Shown here: positions 6,476 through 17,785 of the stretch, piece after piece
Layout of the letters: every line of letters starts with the position of its first letter
Numbering within the stretch: the stretch's first letter is position 1
Sequence record: SRR22947725_3392
Direction: 5' to 3' (one strand)
Length of the DNA stretch: 40,543 bases
Made by a program: the position numbers and the translations under genes
Notes under the pieces: model-generated
The model's input: the letters and a program-made list of their open reading frames with translations, nothing else
Told to the model about the DNA's origin: nothing
Database searches by the model: none

Positions 6476-7399
6476 ATGTTTGATGACCGGCTCTTTCGCG
6501 AAGCAATGGAGCTTTCGGACGTCCCCAAGGGACTGCCCTTAGTGGCTGGACTCACGGGCTTTGCTGACGCAGGGGGAGTCGTCACCCAAGTCAATCGTTA
6601 TTTGCTGGATGCGCTCGAGTCAGAGCGTGTGGGGACATTCAACAATGACCTCTTGATGGATTACCGCGCGAGACGACCAGTGTTTCAGTTCGAAGAAACA
6701 CACCTCACCTCCTACGAATCTCCGCGATTGAGCCTCGATTTGGTGCAGGACGAACTGGGGTCACCCTTTCTTTTCCTTTCCGGATATGAGCCCGATTTTC
6801 TGTGGGAAACAATGTCCCAGACCATCCTTGGGCTGATCGATTCGCTGGAGGTCTCGACCAGCAGCTGGGTGCACGCCATCCCCATGCCGGTTCCCCACAC
6901 CAGGAGCCTGGGCGTGACGGTCAGCGGTAATCGCGAAGACATCACCGATGCGCTTTCCGTGTGGCGCCCCACCACGGGTGTCCCCGGCACCCTGATGCAC
7001 CTCATTGAATACCGCCTCCAAGAGGCTGAGCACCCCACGGCAGGGTTTGTTGTTTTGGTGCCCCACTACCTCGCAGATACCGAATTCCCCGACGCTGCCA
7101 TCACGGCTTTGCAAAGTGTGACCAAAGCAACCGGGCTGATTTTTCCCACAGATAGTTTGCGCGAGTCTGGACGGGAGTTTTTGACGGGAATCGGCAAACA
7201 GGTCGAGGACAACACCGAGTTAGAGAAACTCATTGAATCCCTGGAAAAACGCCACGACTCCTACATGGAAGACAACGCCGTTCCGTCTCCTCTGATGGAC
7301 GCCGATGGCGAAGTGCCCAGTGCAGACATGATTGGTTCGGAGCTTGAAAACTTCCTGGCTAAGCGCCACCCCGGTGTGGCCGAGTCCACCGAAGACTGA
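6476..7399 (+). CDS. PAC2 / proteasome assembly chaperone family protein
   Basis: GFADAG, DYRARRP, GYEPDF.W, IPMPVPHTR, VPHYL motifs. Confidence 0.9.
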   Translation: MFDDRLFREAMELSDVPKGLPLVAGLTGFADAGGVVTQVNRYLLDALESERVGTFNNDLLMDYRARRPVFQFEETHLTSYESPRLSLDLVQDELGSPFLFLSGYEPDFLWETMSQTILGLIDSLEVSTSSWVHAIPMPVPHTRSLGVTVSGNREDITDALSVWRPTTGVPGTLMHLIEYRLQEAEHPTAGFVVLVPHYLADTEFPDAAITALQSVTKATGLIFPTDSLRESGREFLTGIGKQVEDNTELEKLIESLEKRHDSYMEDNAVPSPLMDADGEVPSADMIGSELENFLAKRHPGVAESTED

Positions 7400-7538: not shown

Positions 7539-9188
7539 ATGGCCTCACAGACAGATAAACCCTCTTCCTCCTCTGAAGCGAGCAACAAAAGCGCTCCCGC
7601 AAAGCGAAGCTTCTTTGACCGGATCACCGGTCGAGCCTCGAAACCCTCTCCAGAACCTCAGAAAGCACGCGCCACGCCTGTGACCCCTCCCGCACAAAAA
7701 AAGACTTCCCCTTCGCCAAAAGCTGCTGCCAAGACGCCCGCCAAGAAGGCGCCTGTGACACAAAAGCCGGCTGCTAAGAAACCTGCGGCTAAAGCTGCTG
7801 CGGCGCCGGCGGCGAAGGCCGCAGCGAAGAAGCCTGTCGCCACGAAGGCACCCGCTTCGAAGACGGCGGCAAAGACTCCCGCGAAGAAGGCAGCCGTCAA
7901 GCCTGCAACGAAGGCCACCGCCACGAAGGCTCCAGCAACAAAAGCTGCTGCAAAACCCGCGGCAAAGGCCCCGGTCAAGAAGACGGCCGGAACAAAAGCT
8001 CCCGTTTCGAAAGCTCCCGCGAAGAAGGCGGCAAAAAAGCCTGCCGCCACGAAGGCCGTTGAAGCTGAAGAATCAACGCCAACGCCTGCGGGTGCCGATG
8101 CGGGCAAGGATGATGTTGCCGAAAAGCTGGGAGCAGACATTGTTGCCGGGCTCCAAGAGGTCTCTGAAGAGGAGGAAGAGGACACACCCGCGGTGGCTCT
8201 CCCTCTGGGGGCTCTCGTGCTTTCCAGCACGGATGACGACGATGCACCCATCATTTCGACCACGATTACCGGGGCGACTGCTGATCCGGTTAAGGACTAC
8301 CTCAAGCAGATTGGAAAGGTAGCACTCCTTAACGCGGAGCAGGAAGTGTCGCTCGCATTACGCATCGAAGCGGGTCTCTTTTCGGAAGAAAAGTTGTCTG
8401 CGATGACGGCGTCCCAGAAAACGACGAAACTTTCCCGCGAGCTTTATGAAATCGCCAAAGATGGCCAGCGGGCGAAGAACCACTTGTTGGGGGCAAACCT
8501 CCGCTTGGTGGTATCCCTCGCGAAGCGTTACACCGGGCGTGGGATGCAGTTCCTGGATCTCATTCAAGAGGGAAACCTTGGTCTGATTCGCGCGGTGGAA
8601 AAGTTTGACTACACCAAGGGTTTCAAGTTCTCGACCTATGCAACCTGGTGGATCCGTCAGGCCATTACCCGGGCGATGGCGGACCAGGCACGCACGATCC
8701 GTATCCCCGTCCACATGGTCGAGGTCATCAACAAACTGGCCCGTGTCCAGCGTCAAATGCTTCAGGACCTGGGACGAGAGCCCACTCCGGAAGAGTTGGC
8801 ACGCGAGTTGGATATGACGCCGGAAAAGGTTGTCGAGGTCCAGAAGTACGGTCGCGAACCCATCTCGCTTCACACGCCCCTGGGTGAAGACGGCGACAGC
8901 GAGTTCGGTGACCTGATTGAAGACACCGAAGCGGTTGTGCCTGCGGATGCAGTGGGTTTCACCATGCTCCAGCGCCAGCTCGAAGGGCTCCTCGAGTCAC
9001 TGTCCGAGCGCGAAGCGGGCGTCATTCGTATGCGCTTTGGACTGGGTGATGGAATGCCGAAGACGTTGGATCAGATTGGGGACACTTTTGGTGTGACGCG
9101 TGAGCGCATTCGCCAAATAGAGTCCAAGACGATGGCGAAACTTCGCCACCCCTCTCGGTCCCAGGCTCTGCGCGACTATTTGGAGTAA
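7539..9188 (+). CDS. sigA: Primary RNA polymerase sigma factor (SigA/RpoD/HrdB type)
   Basis: [59 protein letters not shown]; long basic N-terminal extension. Confidence 0.97.
7680..8060 (+). repeat. Degenerate Lys/Ala/Pro/Thr peptide repeats (PAKKA / ATKAP) inside sigA
   Basis: Protein reads [66 protein letters not shown]; boundaries approximate. Confidence 0.85.
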
Positions 9189-9192
9189 GCCA

Positions 9193-10461
9193 ATGAGGCT
9201 TTTTGCTGCGTTCGCTATCGCAAAGTTTTTGCGTTTTCTCACGCGGTTGCGTGGGGGCGGATCCGCTTTCCCCGGTTTTGTTCTCTTGCGTCTGGTTCCC
9301 GACGCCCTGGAGCGCGCAGTGGGGTCCCTCCCGCGGGGCGTGATTTTTGTGACCGGGTCAAATGGGAAATCGACAACCACAGCGATGCTGACGGAGATTC
9401 TGCGGGCCCACGGCCTCCGGGTGTTTTCTAATCCCGCCGGAGGGAATCTGCCGCAGGGTCTTGCCTCGGCTCTTGTCGGCGGTGCGAGCCTGCTTGGCCG
9501 GGTCGCAGCCGATATTGCCGTGCTGGAGGTCGATGAGGCCTACGGCCCCTCAATTTCGGACCTGGTCGCCCCCGACTGGGTCGTCATCACCAATATTCAA
9601 GTGGACCAGCTCAATCGCTTTGGCGAGCCCGAAGCGGTCTATCGGCTGCTCCTCACCCTGGGCCATCGGGCCACAGCGGGTGTCGTTATTAACGGCAGCG
9701 ACCCAAACACCACGGCTTTGGGGGCAGAATTGCATGCCACGGGGACTCGGGTGGAGCAAATGCAGGTGAGTTCCGCTGCGCAAGCCACGGCCGCCCACGG
9801 TCTAGTCCCGGCACCACTTTTTTTTGATCCCACACCGAACCTCGCTGTGGCGCCGGGAGTCGTCGTTTCCGCCGTCCACGGTCCACAGGCGAGCCTCGAC
9901 GTGGCGGGCGCTGTGTGGAAGGTCACTCTGCCCCAGCCGGGCCTGCACTATGCCGTGGATGCCGGTCTTGCGATGGAAATGGCTAGCGTGGTTCTGCAGG
10001 ACTTTCAGCCAGAACGGGCAGTAGCAGCGCTGGAACTCGGGGCCGGTGTCTATGGCAGGGGAGAGGTCATCCGCTATCGGGGGGTTGATATCTCGTTGAC
10101 CATGATGAAAAATCTGCCCAGTCTTCAAGTGAACCTCGACGCTTTTCCCGCCCCGCTCGAGAACGTTTTTATCGCCGTGGATGAGGGAACCCCGGATCCG
10201 TCATGGATTTTTGATGTGGATACCCGCTCGCTCGCATCGGTCTCGGTTTTGAGCGGCTCAAAGGCCTGGCAGTGGGCCTTGCTACTCGAACACCGTGGAA
10301 TTCCCTACGGCGAGGTCATCGAAGACTCTCGCGCTGGCTTAGATGCTTTTATCAAGAACTCACCGCCCCAAGGCGGCCCACTTCACGCAATCGTGAATTA
10401 TGAACAGATGATGCGTATTCGTCGAATTGCTGGATACAAAGAGTTGGAGGGAGCTCGATGA
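9193..10461 (+). CDS. murT: MurT-like Mur ligase family protein (lipid II D-Glu alpha-carboxyl modifying), no Cys zinc finger
   Basis: GGGSAFPG, P-loop TGSNGKSTT, LEVDE, DQLNRFGE, GRGE, MKN, DPSWIFDVD; followed by a GatD-like gene. Confidence 0.85.
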   Translation: MRLFAAFAIAKFLRFLTRLRGGGSAFPGFVLLRLVPDALERAVGSLPRGVIFVTGSNGKSTTTAMLTEILRAHGLRVFSNPAGGNLPQGLASALVGGASLLGRVAADIAVLEVDEAYGPSISDLVAPDWVVITNIQVDQLNRFGEPEAVYRLLLTLGHRATAGVVINGSDPNTTALGAELHATGTRVEQMQVSSAAQATAAHGLVPAPLFFDPTPNLAVAPGVVVSAVHGPQASLDVAGAVWKVTLPQPGLHYAVDAGLAMEMASVVLQDFQPERAVAALELGAGVYGRGEVIRYRGVDISLTMMKNLPSLQVNLDAFPAPLENVFIAVDEGTPDPSWIFDVDTRSLASVSVLSGSKAWQWALLLEHRGIPYGEVIEDSRAGLDAFIKNSPPQGGPLHAIVNYEQMMRIRRIAGYKELEGAR

Positions 10462-11189
10462 GCACCTTCACCATTGCGCGACTGGTGCCGCGGATGCTGG
10501 GGTTGAATGGGTCGTCCCACAACGCGTCCATTTTGGCGAGCTATCTCAAACACAGTGGTCACACCATCGAGATCGTCGATGTTGACGCCCCAGAGGATGC
10601 CCCGGCCCGGGTCGACGCGGTGTGTGTGGGCAGCGGGTCTGCATCGACCCTTCGGCCCGCAGCAACCCTCATCATCCCTTTGGTCCGGGTGCTCGCGCAG
10701 TGGCGCACCCACGGCGCCCACGTGGTCGCCGTGGGGACCGGGTGGGACCTCCTCGGTCACACCGTGACCACCCCGGAGGGCGAAGTGTTACCCGGTGCTG
10801 GAATATTGCCTTCGCACGCGAATCACGGTGGCACACGGTTTTCCGGGGAGGTTGCCGGTGTGGATTACCAGGGTCGCGCTAGCGCGGGGTATGTGAACCA
10901 GGTGGGGCACGTGAAGCTCGAGGGCGGAGCAAAACCGCTCATGGAGATTGATGCCCCAGAATCCGGATATCCCCGGGAAGAGGGCCTGGTGGGGGACAAT
11001 GTGTTCGCCAGCCGTGTGGGAGGTCCAGCCTTTGCTCTCAATCCCCACTGGTGCGAGGACGTTGCCAGCTCCCTACTTCAGGCGCGAGGCGAAACGCTTC
11101 AGCGGACAGAATTTCACTCCCGAATTGACCATGCTGCCAGGGAAGCTCGTCGCCTCATCGAAGCCCGATTGGGCGTCGCTAGGAGCTGA
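10458..11189 (+). CDS. gatD: GatD / CobQ-like class I glutamine amidotransferase homolog lacking catalytic Cys and His
   Basis: ATGA overlap with murT; GatD-like layout (VPRMLGLNG..N, VGSG, AVGTGWDLLG, LPGAGILP, GYVNQ, EG...NVFASRVGGP..LNP). Confidence 0.8.
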   Translation: MSTFTIARLVPRMLGLNGSSHNASILASYLKHSGHTIEIVDVDAPEDAPARVDAVCVGSGSASTLRPAATLIIPLVRVLAQWRTHGAHVVAVGTGWDLLGHTVTTPEGEVLPGAGILPSHANHGGTRFSGEVAGVDYQGRASAGYVNQVGHVKLEGGAKPLMEIDAPESGYPREEGLVGDNVFASRVGGPAFALNPHWCEDVASSLLQARGETLQRTEFHSRIDHAAREARRLIEARLGVARS

Positions 11190-12237
11190 AGCGTCGCTCC
11201 ACACGAGAACTCATGCTGGAGACGACCTCATCACCGATGGTTCCCGCCCACCTAGCCCAGTCTTCAGCGCTGGGGCTCGTCTCATCCCCCCACAGCGTGA
11301 CGATGTCTCCGAGTGCGACGCGGGCTTCGTGGGGTATTCCGATCACGAGGTGATCCACCTGCACTGACTGGAGTTGTGCTGGCGAACCTCCTAGCGAAAC
11401 CCACCCCGTGTGAGGGGGGAGCGGGAGGAGGCCGTGGCCATAGCCCATTCCCACCCAGGCCAGGTTCTGCTCGGTATCCACGTGACTCACGCGGGCACGA
11501 GCGGCCATAACGGGGGCAAAGCCCATGTCGGCGGGTGTTCGCTCATCAAAGGGGCTCACCCCGTACACGCTGATTCCCACCCTCACCATGTCCAGCCGAG
11601 ATTGCGGAATATCGGTCGCAGCGGCAGAGGCGGCAATGTGGAGAATATCGGGAGAAAGCCCTACCGCCCGCGCTTTCTCAACTGCACCGTGGAACCGTTC
11701 GAGAGATTCCAGGTTTTCCTCGGTGGAGGTGTCAGAAAGGTGGGACCAGATTCCGCGCACCCGCACGCGCCCACTTTTTTCCATGGCCGCTGCGGCTTCG
11801 CAGAGTGCGACCCAGTCGCCTTGGAGGGCGCCATTGCGGTGCAGTCCGGTATCAATTTTGAGATGGAGCGAAACGGGCCCCCCGGTTGCTTCGTGAGCAA
11901 GCTTGTCGAGTTGCCACAAAGCCGAAATCCCCAGGTCAACCCCGGCGCGTTGAGCCTTGGCGAAGTCGTCGTGGGGCGAGAGAAGCCACGCCAACAGCAT
12001 CGTGTCGCCGACGTGTGGCCTCAAGCGAACCCCGGACTCAATATCCAGCACCGCCAGGGATCCAGCTCCGTGGGCCAGCGCTGTGGTGGCGATGCTGACT
12101 TCTCCGTGACCGTAGGCGTCGGACTTCACCGCCACCATCAACTCTGCGTCACCGGCCAGGGCTCGCTTCGCCTTCGCCACATTGCTTGCAAACGCGGCGA
12201 GGGAAATGTCGATCCAGCAGGTGGCTTCTACATCCAC
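11179..12237 (-). CDS. Alanine racemase-family PLP enzyme with intact Lys barrel and degenerate C-terminal domain
   Basis: AVKSDAYGHG, HLKIDTGLHRNG, WSHL, RVGISVYG present; the SYG (Tyr265') and GRxxMD motifs are absent. Confidence 0.88.
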   Translation of the reverse strand: MDVEATCWIDISLAAFASNVAKAKRALAGDAELMVAVKSDAYGHGEVSIATTALAHGAGSLAVLDIESGVRLRPHVGDTMLLAWLLSPHDDFAKAQRAGVDLGISALWQLDKLAHEATGGPVSLHLKIDTGLHRNGALQGDWVALCEAAAAMEKSGRVRVRGIWSHLSDTSTEENLESLERFHGAVEKARAVGLSPDILHIAASAAATDIPQSRLDMVRVGISVYGVSPFDERTPADMGFAPVMAARARVSHVDTEQNLAWVGMGYGHGLLPLPPHTGWVSLGGSPAQLQSVQVDHLVIGIPHEARVALGDIVTLWGDETSPSAEDWARWAGTIGDEVVSSMSSRVERRFSS

Positions 12238-12848
12238 GTTCGCATCACCCGAGTCGCAAGACGGGATTGCACCGCTCCTGTTGGGCGGCGGGACCAGAGT
12301 GACCAGTCAGAAAGAGTGGGGCTTGCTCCCCAGATGGTGACGCTTTCACCGAGATCAATGGGGGAATCACCGACATCGAGAATGCACTGATCCATCGCGA
12401 TGCGGCCAGCAACTGGGAAATCGATGCCTCTGATGCTCATCCGAGCTCCCGGCGAGGCGGTGCGCGGGACGCCATCGGAAAATCCGGCGCTGACCAGAGC
12501 CAGCGTCGTCGCGGTGGCGGTGCGATATTCGTACCCATAGGACACGGGTGTTCCCGGACCTACCCGCTTGAGCGAGATCACATCCGCCTCAAAAGTCACA
12601 AAAGCCTCGGGAGAATCCCACCAGTTCGTGAGAGCGGTCTCAGAGACGGGATCGATCGGCAACACCGAGGCTTCGGAGTCTCCGGGTGAGGCGACGACGC
12701 GGGCAAAACCCACCTCAGCGGCAATTTCGGAGGTTTTCGCGAGCCCTAAACCGTATGCGTTGGCTCGTAGATCGAGAGTTTCGTGCGCCCCACGAAGGCT
12801 ACCCAGGTGCTCCCTGAGCGCCTGGGTGTTGATGAACGCTCGGCGCAC
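12228..12848 (-). CDS. Alanine racemase C-terminal-domain protein (barrel largely deleted)
   Basis: LDLRANAYGLG (PLP Lys replaced by Arg), then PVSYGYEY, GFSDGVPR, GRIAMDQ; 206 aa; overlaps the downstream alr-like gene by 10 nt. Confidence 0.85.
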   Translation of the reverse strand: MRRAFINTQALREHLGSLRGAHETLDLRANAYGLGLAKTSEIAAEVGFARVVASPGDSEASVLPIDPVSETALTNWWDSPEAFVTFEADVISLKRVGPGTPVSYGYEYRTATATTLALVSAGFSDGVPRTASPGARMSIRGIDFPVAGRIAMDQCILDVGDSPIDLGESVTIWGASPTLSDWSLWSRRPTGAVQSRLATRVMRTWM

Positions 12849-13087: not shown

Positions 13088-13268
13088 CGCTTCTCCTTGA
13101 AGGCTCCATTGGTGAACAGTGCTATTCCATCACGAGAAACCTTGAACGGGTGCCGTGACGCTCCCAGTTTCGCCCACCGCGTATCCACAGGCTTCGGCGG
13201 GGGAACCCCCAGTACCGGGGGATTTGCCTAAGCTCAAGGCTGCAGATACACCACCTAAAGGACTTTTC

Positions 13269-15347
13269 GTGCCCACGACTGATTACTCCGCTCGCCACCT
13301 CACCGTGCTGGAAGGCCTTGAGGCTGTCCGCAAGCGGCCGGGTATGTACATCGGTTCGACTGACTCCCGCGGATTGATGCACTGTTTGTGGGAAGTCATT
13401 GACAACTCTGTCGATGAAGCGGTTGCCGGCCACGGGACAGATATCTCCGTCGTCCTCCATGATGATGGCAGCGTGTCGGTAGCTGATTCGGGCCGCGGTG
13501 TCCCCGTGGACAAAGAGCCGCGCACCGGCCTCTCTGGCGTGGAATTGGTATTCACTAAACTCCACGCTGGCGGCAAGTTTGGGGCGGGTTCCTATGCGGC
13601 CTCAGGGGGTCTCCATGGCGTGGGAGCCTCTGTGGTGAATGCTCTGTCCGAGCGTCTAGACGTCGAAGTAGATAGAGAAGGCAAGACGTGGGCGATGTCC
13701 TTCCACCGCGGCGAACCAGGTGTCTTTGCTGATTCCGCCGCACCCTCACCGGAGTCGGACTTCACTCCGTTCGTGAGCGAAAGCGTCCTGGCGAGTGTGG
13801 GGACGACCAAAAAAGGTGTCACGGGAACCCGGGTCCGGTTTTGGCCCGATCCGCAAATATTTGGAAAAAAGTCGACGTTTGCCTCGGAAGAGCTGACCGA
13901 GAGGGCTCGTCAAACGGCGTTCTTAGTTCCTGGGCTTTCCATCCACCTGGAAGATGGCACCGGCGAAGAAACCCTCTCCACCACCTTTTCCGCTGCCGGT
14001 GGGCTGGGCGACTTCTTGGGCTTTTTAGCTCCCGACCAGGCTGTTGTGGGCCCGTGGCACTTTTCGGGGGAGGGAGAATTTGAAGAGACTGTCCCGGTGC
14101 TTGATGACACGGGAAAACTCCTCTCTCAAGATGTCCTCCGCAACGTTCATGTCGATGTCGTCCTTCAGTGGGGCACTGGTTATGACACCGTCTCCAAGAG
14201 CTTTGTGAACATCATCCAAACCCCCAAAGGCGGCACCCACCAGCAAGGCTTTGACGCGGGACTGGTGAAGACGCTTCGGTCAGAAATTGACAAGAACGCG
14301 CGGAAGCTCAAGGTGGGCAAGGACAAAGTTGAAAAAGACGACATGATCGCCGGAATGACCGCCATTATCGCCGTAAGGGTGCCCGAACCACAGTTCGAGG
14401 GCCAAACCAAAGAGGTTTTGGGCACGCCGGGAATTAAATCCATCGTTCAAGCGGTCATATCTGAGGGGCTTTCGGCCAAGTTTTCCTCGACCAAACGCGA
14501 GGACAAAGCCTTTTCCGCCGTGTTACAGGAAAAGATCGTCGCGGAAATGAAAACGAGGGTCTCCGCCCGAGCTCTCAAAGAAACACAGCGGCGGAAAAAC
14601 GCGCTTGAGGCTTCCACCCTGCCCACAAAACTTGTGGACTGTCGCAGTAAGGAAACCGAAGGCAGCGAGCTGTTCATTGTCGAAGGTGATTCGGCCTTAG
14701 GGACAGCCAAGCTCGCCAGAGACAGCGAACACCAGGCTCTGTTGCCCATCCGCGGGAAGATTTTAAACACGCAAAAGGCCTCGGTTCAAGACATGCTGGA
14801 TAACGCGGAGTGTGCCGCCATCATTCAAGTGATTGGGGCGGGCTCTGGTCGAACTTTCGATGTCAGCCAGGCCCGCTACGGCAAGGTGATCATCATGTCT
14901 GACGCCGATGTGGATGGCGCCCACATTCGAACTTTGCTCCTGACGCTGTTCTTTCGATACATGAGACCACTGGTGGAAGAAGGCCGGGTCTACGCCGCGG
15001 TGCCGCCCTTGCATCGAGTAGTCATCAACGCGCGAGGCAAAGCACCCTCCGAAATCGTCTACACCTACTCCGAGGAAGAGCTCACCACTCTTCTTGCGCA
15101 GCTCGAAGCAGCAGGCAAAACCTATAAAGAGCCCATTCAGCGCTATAAGGGGCTGGGCGAGATGGATGCCGATCAGCTCGCAGAAACCACGATGAACCGC
15201 TCCGACCGGATGCTCCGACGAGTGCGGGTGAGTGACGCCGAGGCAGCCTCGACCGTGTTTGAACTACTGATGGGCAATGAAGTCGCTCCGAGGCGAGAAT
15301 TCATTGTCTCGGGCCCGGGGCTTGCCAGGGAGCGCATTGACGCCTAG
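13269..15347 (+). CDS. parE: DNA topoisomerase IV subunit B
   Basis: [54 protein letters not shown]. Start moved to GTG 13269 (MPTTDYSA) after AAAGGA; TAAGCT -10 at 13229-13234. Confidence 0.93.
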
Positions 15348-17785
15348 CTCAGGCGTTCACCAAAGGCCGTGACGGAACCCTCGAGGAGGGTTCCCGAGCC
15401 ATCACGCTTGGATACTTCCTCGGGAAGCGCGATGGCCTGACCTTTCGCCCCCATGGCGAGGGGCGAAACCCCCGCGAATGCGCGAGAAAGGATGTCCTCG
15501 CCTTTCAGGAACGCGTGCGCTCGAACTCCCGAAGTTGCGCGTCCCTTGGTGGGGAAGTCAACCAGCGGCGTTCGCTTTGCCCTGGCTGATTCCGTTCCAG
15601 GGAGCACCTGGCTAGACCCTGACACGGTGACCACTTCCGCAACAGAGCGGTCCACAGCACCAGCAAAGATCACCCTGGCGTCGTTGGACAAGGAGATCCC
15701 CGCAACTCCGGAGGCGGCAAGCCCTTGCGGGCGAACATCGCCGGAAGAGAAATTCAGTAGCTGACCGGCAGAGGTGATGAGAACCAGGGAGTGAGAATCG
15801 GGGGCCGATCCGCACCCGACAACACGGTCACCGTCCTTGAGGGTCATGACAGATTGGTGCGTTTTGTCCCCCAGGTCTGCCAGCGAGACGCGCTTGACCA
15901 CACCCGCTGCGGTGCCAAGCATGAAGGGAACATCGCTTCCTAGAGCGATGACGCCGAGGATGTCACCATCCTCACGGGAGAGCCCGAGATATTCCGACAG
16001 CGCGATGCCCTGACCCCACTGGGGCTTCGAGGATGCGAGCTCGGGCAAATCGGAGGGAGGGAAAGTGTGGAGCATTCCCGCGGAAGTGATGGCGCCCAGC
16101 TGTCCGCGGGTGCTTGTGAGGATGTGAGCCATGGCGGCGTCATGGGCCCTCCGTTGGTCGGTGAGGACTAATGCCCCGTTGGATGGAGCGAAACGACTCG
16201 CGCGGCCCAGTGCTGACACCACAACGGTGCAGGGAATGTCAGCGATTGCTAAGTCCTTCTGAGGCGCAGAGGACCGCGGAGCGACCGCAGGGGTATGGCC
16301 TGAAATAACACTGCGGCGGGGAGTGCCGTATTTCTCCGACATTTCCGAAAGCTCTGTGGACACGGTCTCGCGAATGCGTTCCTCGCTCGCAAGGAGCGCG
16401 GTGAGTTCGGTGATGTCTTCGGCAAGGGAGTCACGCTCCGTTTCCAGTTCCAGACGAGAGAATTTTGTAAGACGCCGCAACCGCAGCTCGAGAATGTATT
16501 CGGCCTGCTCGTCGGAGAGGTCAAAAACTTCCCGGAGACGCTCTTTAGCCTTTGACCCGTCATCGGAGGCCCGAATGACCTGAATAACCTCGTCGATGTC
16601 GGTGATGGCAACGAGTAGGCCTTCCACCAGGTGCAGGCGGGCAGTGCGTTGGGTGAGGCGAAAGCGCGAACGCCTGGTAACTACCAGGATGCGATGGTCT
16701 ACATAGACTTGAAGAAGTTCGCGAAGACCCAAAGTCTTGGGTTGACCCTCCACCAGCGCGACCGAGTTGATGGAAAAATTCTCCTCCAGCGGGGTCAATC
16801 GATAGAGCTCGGAGAGCACCGCCTCGGGGTCGAAGCCACCCTTGATACCAATAACCAGCCGCAGCCCGTGGTGGCGGTCGGTGAGGTCTGTCACATCACT
16901 GATGCCAGTCAGCTTCTTACTCCCGACGGCGTCCTTAATCTTGTCGATTACGCGCTCAGGTCCCACCAAGTAGGGCAACTCCGTCACAACAAGTCCTGTT
17001 TTGCGCGGCCCAATGTTTTCGATGCTGACGGTGGCGCGGGTCTTGAAACTTCCTCGACCGGAGAGGTAAGCATCGGCAATGCCCTCGGTGCCAATGATGG
17101 TTCCGCCGCTGGGCAAATCGGGGCCAGGAATGATTTTCTGTAAATCCTCGACGCTCGCCTCTGGATGGTTCAGGACGTGTTGTGCCGCAGCAATGACCTC
17201 GACCAGGTTGTGAGGTGCCATATTCGTGGCCATGCCCACAGCGATTCCGCTGGCCCCATTCACCAAAAGGTGGGGGATCGCGGCGGGCAAAACACTCGGC
17301 TGGGTCAGCTGGTTGTCGTAGTTGGGGATAAAATCGACCACGTCTTCGTCGAGGTCTTGAACCATGGCCAATGCTTCTGGGCGAAGCCGCGCCTCGGTGT
17401 ACCGGGCGGCGGCAGGCCCGTCATCGAGGGAACCAAAGTTTCCGTGTCCATCCACCATGGGAATGCGCATGGACCAGGATTGCGCCATCCGCACGAGGGC
17501 ATCGTATATCGCCGAGTCACCGTGGGGGTGGAGCTTTCCCATCACGTCACCGACAACACGGGCGGACTTCACGTGTCCCTTTTGGGGGGTGAGCCCCATT
17601 TGGGACATCTGGTAAATGATGCGTCGTTGGACGGGCTTCAAGCCATCGCGCGCGTCGGGCAGCGCTCGCGAGTAAATGACCGAATAGGCGTACTCCAAAA
17701 AGGAGCCTTCCATTTCGTCGGTGAGTTCGACGTCGACAATGCGTTCGGAATCGGCAGTTTCGGGGGGAGTAATCGGTGCAGTCAT
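15344..17785 (-). CDS. parC: DNA topoisomerase IV subunit A
   Basis: [21 protein letters not shown], catalytic AARYTE; beta-pinwheel CTD without a canonical QRRGGKG GyrA-box. Confidence 0.93.

Follow-up and report, generated by a model that had tools for sequence, protein, structure and literature searches.

A Microbacteriaceae locus combining a MurT-type ligase, a pseudo-glutaminase and a two-gene racemase is a candidate module for building the group-B peptidoglycan bridge

Which enzymes build the bridge of group-B peptidoglycan? In this wall type, the alpha-carboxyl of D-glutamate (D-Glu) carries a bridge that contains a diamino acid, giving rise to a 2-4 cross-link. As far as we know, the enzymes that install the bridge, or that make its D-diamino acid, are unassigned. 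The question is raised by four adjoining genes at positions 9193–12848 of SRR22947725_3392, a stretch of 40,543 nucleotides (the window), which encode a MurT-like ligase (MurT*), a GatD-like partner (GatD*) and two proteins related to alanine racemase (AlrL and AlrS). We put at roughly one half the probability that these genes form a conserved cell-wall module of the family Microbacteriaceae, combining a bridge-building ligase with a racemase for a D-diamino acid. The four genes are as follows.

9193..10461, plus strand: MurT*, 422 amino acids (aa), a divergent MurT-type Mur ligase
10458..11189, plus strand: GatD*, 243 aa, the GATase_3-fold partner, a pseudo-glutaminase
11179..12237, minus strand: AlrL, 352 aa, the long racemase subunit
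12228..12848, minus strand: AlrS, 206 aa, the short racemase subunit

The open reading frames (ORFs) match the layout given by an earlier reading of the nucleotide sequence, referred to here as the original prediction. The start of gatD* overlaps the stop of murT* by 4 nucleotides, so that the two genes are probably translationally coupled. The genes for AlrL and GatD* are convergent, with their 3' ends overlapping by 11 nucleotides (11179–11189), and the AlrS gene overlaps the start of the AlrL gene by 10 nucleotides. The four-gene arrangement recurs across dozens of related genomes and is therefore not due to chance. A reading of the locus as pseudogenes was ruled out, all four ORFs being intact, conserved and visibly constrained.

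GatD* has the fold of a glutaminase subunit, with a score of 43.5 bits for PF07685 (GATase_3; cut-off 27), and scores 30.9 bits with the GatD model isoglutsynth_GatD (NF045636), for which the cut-off is 400. Alignment to the solved GatD chains places glycine at the catalytic cysteine (VAVGTGWDLLG against AICGGFQLLG) and again at the catalytic histidine (RVGGP against YFHGP), leaving GatD* without Cys94 and His189, the residues that mark GatD as a class-I glutaminase subunit. The lid residue Tyr17 is replaced by asparagine, and Arg127, the counterpart of R128 in Staphylococcus aureus, is retained. The original prediction had described the catalytic Cys and His as missing in the window; the alignment confirms this and extends the Cys-less state to the whole family. 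Gly or Ala occupies the Cys column in all 92 Microbacteriaceae GatD rows, as opposed to the GatD rows of other families of the order, which retain both Cys and His (7/7); with an eighth outsider, read by eye, the outside count becomes 8/8 from five other families. The Tyr17 position is Asn in 89 of the 92 family rows and Tyr in all seven outsiders, the Arg128 equivalent is kept in 79 of the 92, and the Gly, Asn and Pro residues of the scaffold are conserved across the family. In one very divergent family member (L144), both Cys and His are lost.

In S. aureus GatD, the substitutions C94G and C94A remove all glutamine-dependent activity, H189A and R128A abolish glutaminase activity, and MurT by itself is inactive (accessible parts of PMC3266927 and PMC5871853). 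Because the glutaminase nucleophile has been lost family-wide, GatD* is, judged by its sequence, unable to supply ammonia from glutamine. The former catalytic His position drifts within the family (G, N, Q, S, H), which points to GatD* serving as a structural pseudoenzyme, not as the amino-acid pocket. By analogy with other Mur ligases, an incoming amino acid would more probably bind on MurT* than in the decayed pocket of GatD*.

MurT* matches the Pfam family Mur_ligase_M with 47.5 bits. Its best NCBIfam model is isoglutsynth_MurT (NF045635), with 89.7 bits over residues 14–172 only, which falls short of the curated equivalog cut-off of 800; MurT_C of Pfam reaches 20.3 bits, under the cut-off of 25, with the D-x-S-W-I-x-D-x-D stretch nonetheless aligning. 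The P-loop (GSNGKST), Glu112 and Asp335 are invariant in 13 of 13 aligned homologues, the last two corresponding to E108 and D349 of S. aureus MurT (catalytic roles of these residues in the accessible text of PMC6113224). By alignment, MurT* retains the catalytic residues with which Mur ligases handle ATP and Mg, and lacks the Cys4 zinc ribbon. MurT* shares 33–37% identity over its full length with the MurT proteins of neighbouring families. A tree of MurT unites 29 Microbacteriaceae rows in a single clade with a Shimodaira–Hasegawa-like approximate likelihood ratio test (SH-aLRT) support of 100 and a long stem (1.09), with the long-branch row L144 placed outside it. The other families of the order carry a canonical murT-gatD pair at a different genomic site. 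Automatic annotation names MurT* 'lipid II isoglutaminyl synthase (glutamine-hydrolysing)'; the glutamine part of this name is almost certainly wrong.

The two racemase genes divide between them what is normally found in one. On the alanine racemase model TIGR00492 (cut-off 168), AlrL just passes with 184.5 bits, and AlrS scores 81.1 bits, matching the C-terminal domain only (residues 84–204). AlrL has a full barrel for pyridoxal 5'-phosphate (PLP), with Lys38 (VAVKSDAYGHG), Tyr42, Arg134, His166 and Arg219, and, in alignment with solved alanine racemases, a deletion of the approximately 15-residue segment that bears the catalytic Tyr265'. AlrS supplies Tyr104 (equivalent to Tyr265'; VSYGYEY) and Met152-Asp153-Gln154 (equivalent to M312'-D313'-Q314'); its lysine position is occupied by Arg (DLRANAYGLG), and most of the barrel is gone, leaving a remnant N-terminus. 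The same division is found across relatives. The AlrL lineage retains the residues of its own barrel (K39, Y43, R136, H166 and R219) and drops the lent residues Y265', M312' and D313', the reverse being the case for AlrS, of which Y104, M152 and D153 are invariant in a 23-row alignment. No complete AlrL row has Tyr in the Tyr265' column, which is deleted in all of them except L050 (Gly) and L058 (Ala). Going by these alignments, AlrL and AlrS jointly carry exactly one full set of active-site residues.

Among 67 loci with alr-like ORFs, 62 have one protein with only the catalytic Lys and one with only the catalytic Tyr, the other five being truncated by contig ends; no intact alr lies at this site in any of the 67. 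Structure prediction places AlrL and AlrS in a heterodimer with an interaction prediction score from aligned errors (ipSAE) of 0.92 in three of three runs, compared with 0.01 for the best control. The benchmark mark for this score is reached by 58 of 80 solved complexes and by 2 of 110 mismatched pairs. Contacts agree between runs to at least 91%, the predicted local distance difference test (pLDDT) value of the partner is at least 89, and the predicted interface brings AlrL residues 38–39, 42, 131–136 and 336–337 against AlrS residues 100–106 and 151–154. The score may simply reflect likeness to the solved homodimers of alanine racemase. The tally of loci and the residue pattern bear out the mutual complementarity claimed at the outset, and the two proteins are predicted to pair. 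The accompanying term, a split racemase, fits in that the halves are complementary; the pair is better described as a duplicated alr whose copies degenerated in complementary ways. A gene cut in two was rejected, since AlrS keeps an N-terminal remnant of its own and a full-barrel form exists. The latter, at L149:3949-5004 (genome G389), is a full-length 'AlrS' of 351 aa, which retains the barrel, has Asp at the lysine position and adjoins a normal AlrL, an ATP-grasp gene and MurT*/GatD*. It looks like an evolutionary intermediate of the split.

Tyr354 of alanine racemase lines the side-chain pocket and limits it to alanine. In AlrL this position is occupied by Asp336. It is Asp in 12 and Glu in two of 14 AlrL proteins, Asp in three of three unsplit relatives (Alr2) and Glu in six of six further AlrL proteins, and thus acidic in all 23 sequences of the Alr2 lineage; among the 13 Alr of the housekeeping clade, 11 have Tyr and two, both extra paralogues, have His. 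An acidic residue here suggests a basic substrate for the pair. All examined genomes that bear the pair also contain a separate housekeeping alr, and in the tree AlrL groups with unsplit Alr2 outside the housekeeping clade (support 100/99). In Clavibacter, Herbiconiux and L065g, the unsplit Alr2 gene and the housekeeping alr form a tandem. A third alr paralogue, with His at the Tyr354 position, was observed in Leifsonia (L122) and Herbiconiux (L115), the two forming a tree pair of their own (100/100).

The heterodimer could instead be a second racemase for alanine, serine or another small amino acid, or else a regulatory pseudoenzyme. AlrL does exceed the alr equivalog cut-off, serine racemisation arises in VanT-type enzymes through changes at Tyr354, and Rhodoluna, discussed below, makes D-2,4-diaminobutyrate (D-Dab) without AlrL or AlrS. 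A second enzyme for small amino acids would nevertheless accompany a housekeeping alr in each of these genomes, the substitution at Tyr354 is specifically Asp or Glu, fitting a cationic side chain, and the neighbours of the pair are ligase genes, not ddl or van genes. Taken together, these observations make a racemase of small amino acids, or a regulatory role, distinctly improbable.

The module lies in a slot between two border genes, which are listed here with the genes beyond them.

6476-7399: PAC2-family gene, preceding the sigma-factor gene
7539..9188, plus strand: principal-type sigma-70 factor gene, the upstream border of the slot
13155..15347, plus strand: GyrB/ParE-type topoisomerase subunit gene, the downstream border of the slot
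15344-17785, convergent: ParC/GyrA-type gene, following the GyrB/ParE-type gene

At its N-terminus, the sigma-70 factor carries an extension of some 250 residues in which Lys, Ala and Pro are abundant (window 7539-8300).

In a scan of named genomes, the best-matching named record to the window was a Pontimonas metagenome-assembled genome (MAG) with 98% identity. The scan with MurT* gave 359 confirmed relatives, and the names among the best 80 of these 359 are Pontimonas, Rhodoluna, Leifsonia, Herbiconiux, Clavibacter, Conyzicola, Microcella, Gulosibacter and Terrimesophilobacter; the rest of the 80 are unnamed MAGs, including four labelled Cellulomonadaceae or Micrococcales. Since the named relatives of MurT* belong to the Microbacteriaceae, the host is placed in that family, where it had been expected to fall, as a Pontimonas-like actinobacterium of freshwater or marine type. 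The nearest genome (G001; 1.3 Mb, 97% complete) contains the same module and a separate housekeeping alr, and no MurT-like gene besides the module's own was found in it.

Synteny across the family follows the order PAC2, sigma factor, ligase genes, alr pair, parE and parC. AlrL adjoins murT*-gatD* convergently in 65 of the 80 named loci. An adjoining AlrL is lacking in 13 loci with enough flanking sequence (nine Rhodoluna-type, two Herbiconiux, one Clavibacter and L065), and the remaining two are cut by contig ends. Two g6 genomes (L089 and L090) have the co-directional order murT*-gatD*-alrS-alrL, so that the linkage of racemase and ligase is held in two different gene orders.

The content of the slot was surveyed in 251 Microbacteriaceae genomes of at least 90% completeness, with a threshold of E ≤ 1e-40 for MurT*. 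MurT* was found in 180 genomes, representing 79 of 95 genera. It is the only ligase in 176 genomes and is joined in four by an ATP-grasp protein, the two genes being adjacent in the three such genomes checked. An ATP-grasp protein, a CofE-like protein or both take the place of MurT* in 46 genomes, and 25 genomes have none of the three ligases at the thresholds used; at least one of the three is thus present in 226 of the 251. MurT* and the CofE-like protein never occur together (0/251 genomes; 0 of 37).

In five inspected genomes without MurT* (L139–L143, being G006, G061, G307, G396 and G352, from three genera), the ATP-grasp gene lies beside AlrS-AlrL in all five, and the CofE-like gene directly adjoins it in four; in G352 the CofE-like gene is found about 7 kb further on, past inserted genes. 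The CofE-like protein has 231–233 aa and matches PF01996 with about 48 bits, far under the cut-off of the true CofE model TIGR01916. The ATP-grasp protein has 339 aa and belongs to PF14397, with no NCBIfam family. From their position and sequence, the CofE-like and ATP-grasp proteins seem to be in-place substitutes for MurT*/GatD*. That relatives lacking MurT* hold two other carboxylate-amine ligases beside the racemase pair argues that the slot encodes amino-acid ligation and not amidation.

Five of the genomes with none of the three ligases were inspected: three have an empty slot, one an ABC (ATP-binding cassette) transporter and one a divergent, Cys-less MurT/GatD below the threshold. The transporter, at L147:700-3100 (G365), is of the amino-acid type (SBP_bac_3, permease and ATPase). 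A second unrelated insertion, at L143:9750-15336 (G352), is a cluster resembling those for RiPPs (ribosomally synthesised and post-translationally modified peptides); it lies in the slot between the ATP-grasp and CofE-like genes and encodes an ATP-grasp peptide maturase (TIGR04187, 183.6 bits) and a protein with LanC-like and HopA1 domains.

That the slot can carry such unrelated cargo (L143, L147) raises the question of whether the module acts on the stem peptide at all. Its substrate might be an anionic polymer attached to the wall, a capsule-like polyamide or a small metabolite containing a D-amino acid. Mur-domain ligases also build poly-gamma-glutamate and cyanophycin (accessible text of PMC11915815), and PF14397 is described as a 'sugar-transfer associated' ATP-grasp family. 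True MurT proteins are nevertheless nearest to MurT* both in sequence and in the tree, at the full-length identity given above; the truncated N-terminus specific to MurT and the GatD partner are retained, the stretch around Asp349 aligns, and the slot is without other polymer-synthesis genes. A substrate outside the stem peptide is thus very unlikely.

Microbacteriaceae have walls of group B, with D-Dab, D-ornithine (D-Orn), D-lysine or L-diamino acids (accessible parts of PMC4156110 and PMC7033078); wall peptides with Gly-D-Glu and D-Ala-D-Dab are given in the accessible part of PMC4156110. A literature search, most subscription journals lying outside it, gave no paper tying MurT to group-B walls and no two-gene alanine racemase. 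Diaminobutyrate transaminase (TIGR00709) was tried as a marker of Dab and dropped, as only Clavibacter passed and Leifsonia and Rhodoluna failed. The wall types of Leifsonia, Clavibacter, Herbiconiux, Microcella, Gulosibacter and Pontimonas are used here as we presume them to be. The bridge is added after the nucleotide stage of wall synthesis, as precursor analyses of the 1970s indicated. MurT modifies lipid-bound precursors, not UDP-N-acetylmuramoyl pentapeptide (UDP-MurNAc-pentapeptide; accessible text of PMC3266927).

In the mechanism that we favour, AlrL and AlrS would form an obligate heterodimer, whose one composite active site would interconvert the enantiomers of a basic amino acid: 2,4-diaminobutyrate in the host of the window, and ornithine or lysine elsewhere. 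The pseudoenzyme GatD* would hold MurT* in its active form. MurT* would phosphorylate the D-Glu alpha-carboxyl of the lipid-linked precursor, as MurT does, and the acyl phosphate would be attacked by an amino group of the D-diamino acid in place of ammonia. The outcome would be the acceptor arm for 2-4 cross-linking, the defining feature of group-B peptidoglycan. We regard this as the best available explanation because the ammonia source has been lost exactly in a family that uses the D-Glu alpha-carboxyl for its bridge, because the linked racemase has an acidic pocket, and because other carboxylate-amine ligases replace MurT* in place.

Several observations weigh against this mechanism. MurT* was not found at the survey threshold in 71 of the 251 genomes, and the 25 with none of the three ligases mean that some group-B organisms must make the bridge in another way. 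Absence of the module from many group-B taxa had been named beforehand as a sign against the original prediction, and the survey gives it in part: the 71 genomes without MurT*, 25 of them without any of the ligases, are set against the 180 in which it is present. A single alr-family match was found in 67 of the 176 genomes with MurT* as the only ligase. Two Rhodoluna-type genomes (L108/G304 and L110/G305) have one alr only and no second racemase, which counts against the mechanism because the wall of Rhodoluna lacicola holds D-Dab (accessible text of PMC4156110). The drift at the former His position, seen even among taxa that we take to be of the Dab type, speaks against a tuned amino-acid pocket in GatD*. 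Lastly, the complex of MurT and GatD-C94G from S. aureus still uses free NH3 for amidation at pH 8.5 (accessible text of PMC3266927), from which it follows that a Cys-less pair could be a mere ammonia-dependent amidase. As a separate observation, the single alr of the two Rhodoluna-type genomes has a long branch in the tree (0.64) and Phe in place of Tyr43. This alr might have broadened in specificity and now provide D-Dab, in which case the lack of a second racemase would be accounted for.

The last two points against the mechanism, drift and activity with free ammonia, lead to the alternative that MurT*/GatD* still amidates, with free ammonia as donor, GatD* as a structural partner, and a separate job for the racemase pair. 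The target would be the D-Glu of stems without a bridge, or a different free carboxyl, for instance on the bridge residue. Free drift is what would be expected of a dead pocket, and the inactivity of S. aureus MurT by itself gives the retained partner a role; the incomplete distribution of MurT* in the family and the many MurT* genomes without a second racemase fit as well. Amidation sits less easily with the definition of group B, in which the D-Glu alpha-carboxyl already carries the bridge. The long stem of MurT*, together with the family-wide loss of Cys, suggests a change of function and not the mere loss of the glutamine route. In addition, the ATP-grasp and CofE-like substitutes are ligases that join amino acids, not ammonia, and the linkage to the racemase is retained in both gene orders. 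On balance, continued amidation is unlikely, and attachment of a D-diamino acid by MurT* is preferred.

A wider reading, which we offer tentatively and regard as doubtful in its full extent, is that the slot between the sigma-factor and parE genes is an exchangeable cassette that determines which group-B chemotype a given Microbacteriaceae lineage has. MurT* and its pseudo-glutaminase would join the diamino acid straight onto the D-Glu alpha-carboxyl, and the CofE-like protein with ATP-grasp, or MurT* with ATP-grasp, would make two-residue bridges (for example Gly followed by the diamino acid). Whether the diamino acid is D (B2 types) or L (B1 types) would depend on the heterodimeric racemase, with Asp or Glu at the Tyr354 position tuning it to Dab, Orn or Lys. 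If this were true, a single locus would reveal the chemotype of a wall, and names could be put to the enzymes still missing from 2-4 cross-linking. Chemotaxonomists have used group-B peptidoglycan as a hallmark for fifty years, and the locus offers concrete, cloneable candidate enzymes for it. It also offers two cases in enzyme evolution: an amidotransferase that keeps a dead glutaminase subunit while apparently switching nucleophile, and a homodimeric racemase that has become a predicted obligate heterodimer through complementary loss of half-sites.

The closest characterised counterpart of the ligase pair is the lipid II isoglutaminyl synthase MurT/GatD of S. aureus, Streptococcus pneumoniae and Mycobacterium tuberculosis (Protein Data Bank (PDB) entries 6GS2, 6H5E and 6FQB), which has the same gene order and overlap. 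MurT* shares with MurT the Mur-ligase middle domain, the P-loop, the equivalents of E108 and D349 and the truncated N-terminus, and GatD* shares with GatD the GATase_3 fold and R128. MurT* differs in having no zinc ribbon, and GatD* in having neither Cys94 nor His189 and in having Asn for Tyr17; both score far below the curated models (89.7 against 800 and 30.9 against 400). The pair also occupies another genomic site than in neighbouring families, and its proposed nucleophile is an amino acid instead of ammonia.

Alanine racemase (Alr/DadX; PDB entries 1SFT and 1VFH) is a homodimer with two composite active sites. AlrL and AlrS share with it the fold, the two-base pair of PLP-Lys and Tyr', and, in the predicted complex, the head-to-tail dimer geometry. 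They differ in being two polypeptides with one half-site each, and so with one active site only. The Tyr354 position is Asp in AlrL and the AlrS barrel is mostly lost, an unsplit Alr2 with Asp at position 354 being present in Clavibacter and Herbiconiux. VanT serine racemase, broad-spectrum racemase (Bsr) and lysine racemase are single-gene homodimers or monomers, and we know of no enzyme of this type made from two genes. They belong to the same fold family with altered substrate pockets (PDB entries 4ECL, 4BEU and 4DZA), and are among the PDB matches of the pair, although weaker than true Alr.

For the proposed reaction itself there are two points of comparison. Addition of glycine to the D-Glu alpha-carboxyl in Micrococcus luteus is ATP-dependent and takes place at the lipid stage, as described in biochemistry of the 1960s; to our knowledge the enzyme has not been identified, and the literature search gave no paper linking this reaction to MurT. 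The carboxyl, the lipid-linked stage and the use of ATP with an amino-acid nucleophile are the same as those proposed for MurT*. The 'MurT-like' ligases in the pseudomurein clusters of archaea are, like MurT*, relatives of MurT without an active glutaminase partner; they differ in having no GatD gene at all, in forming a separate clan basal to MurT and in having a putative function (accessible text of PMC11915815). These GatD-less archaeal genes are the nearest published parallel to the ligase pair of the window.

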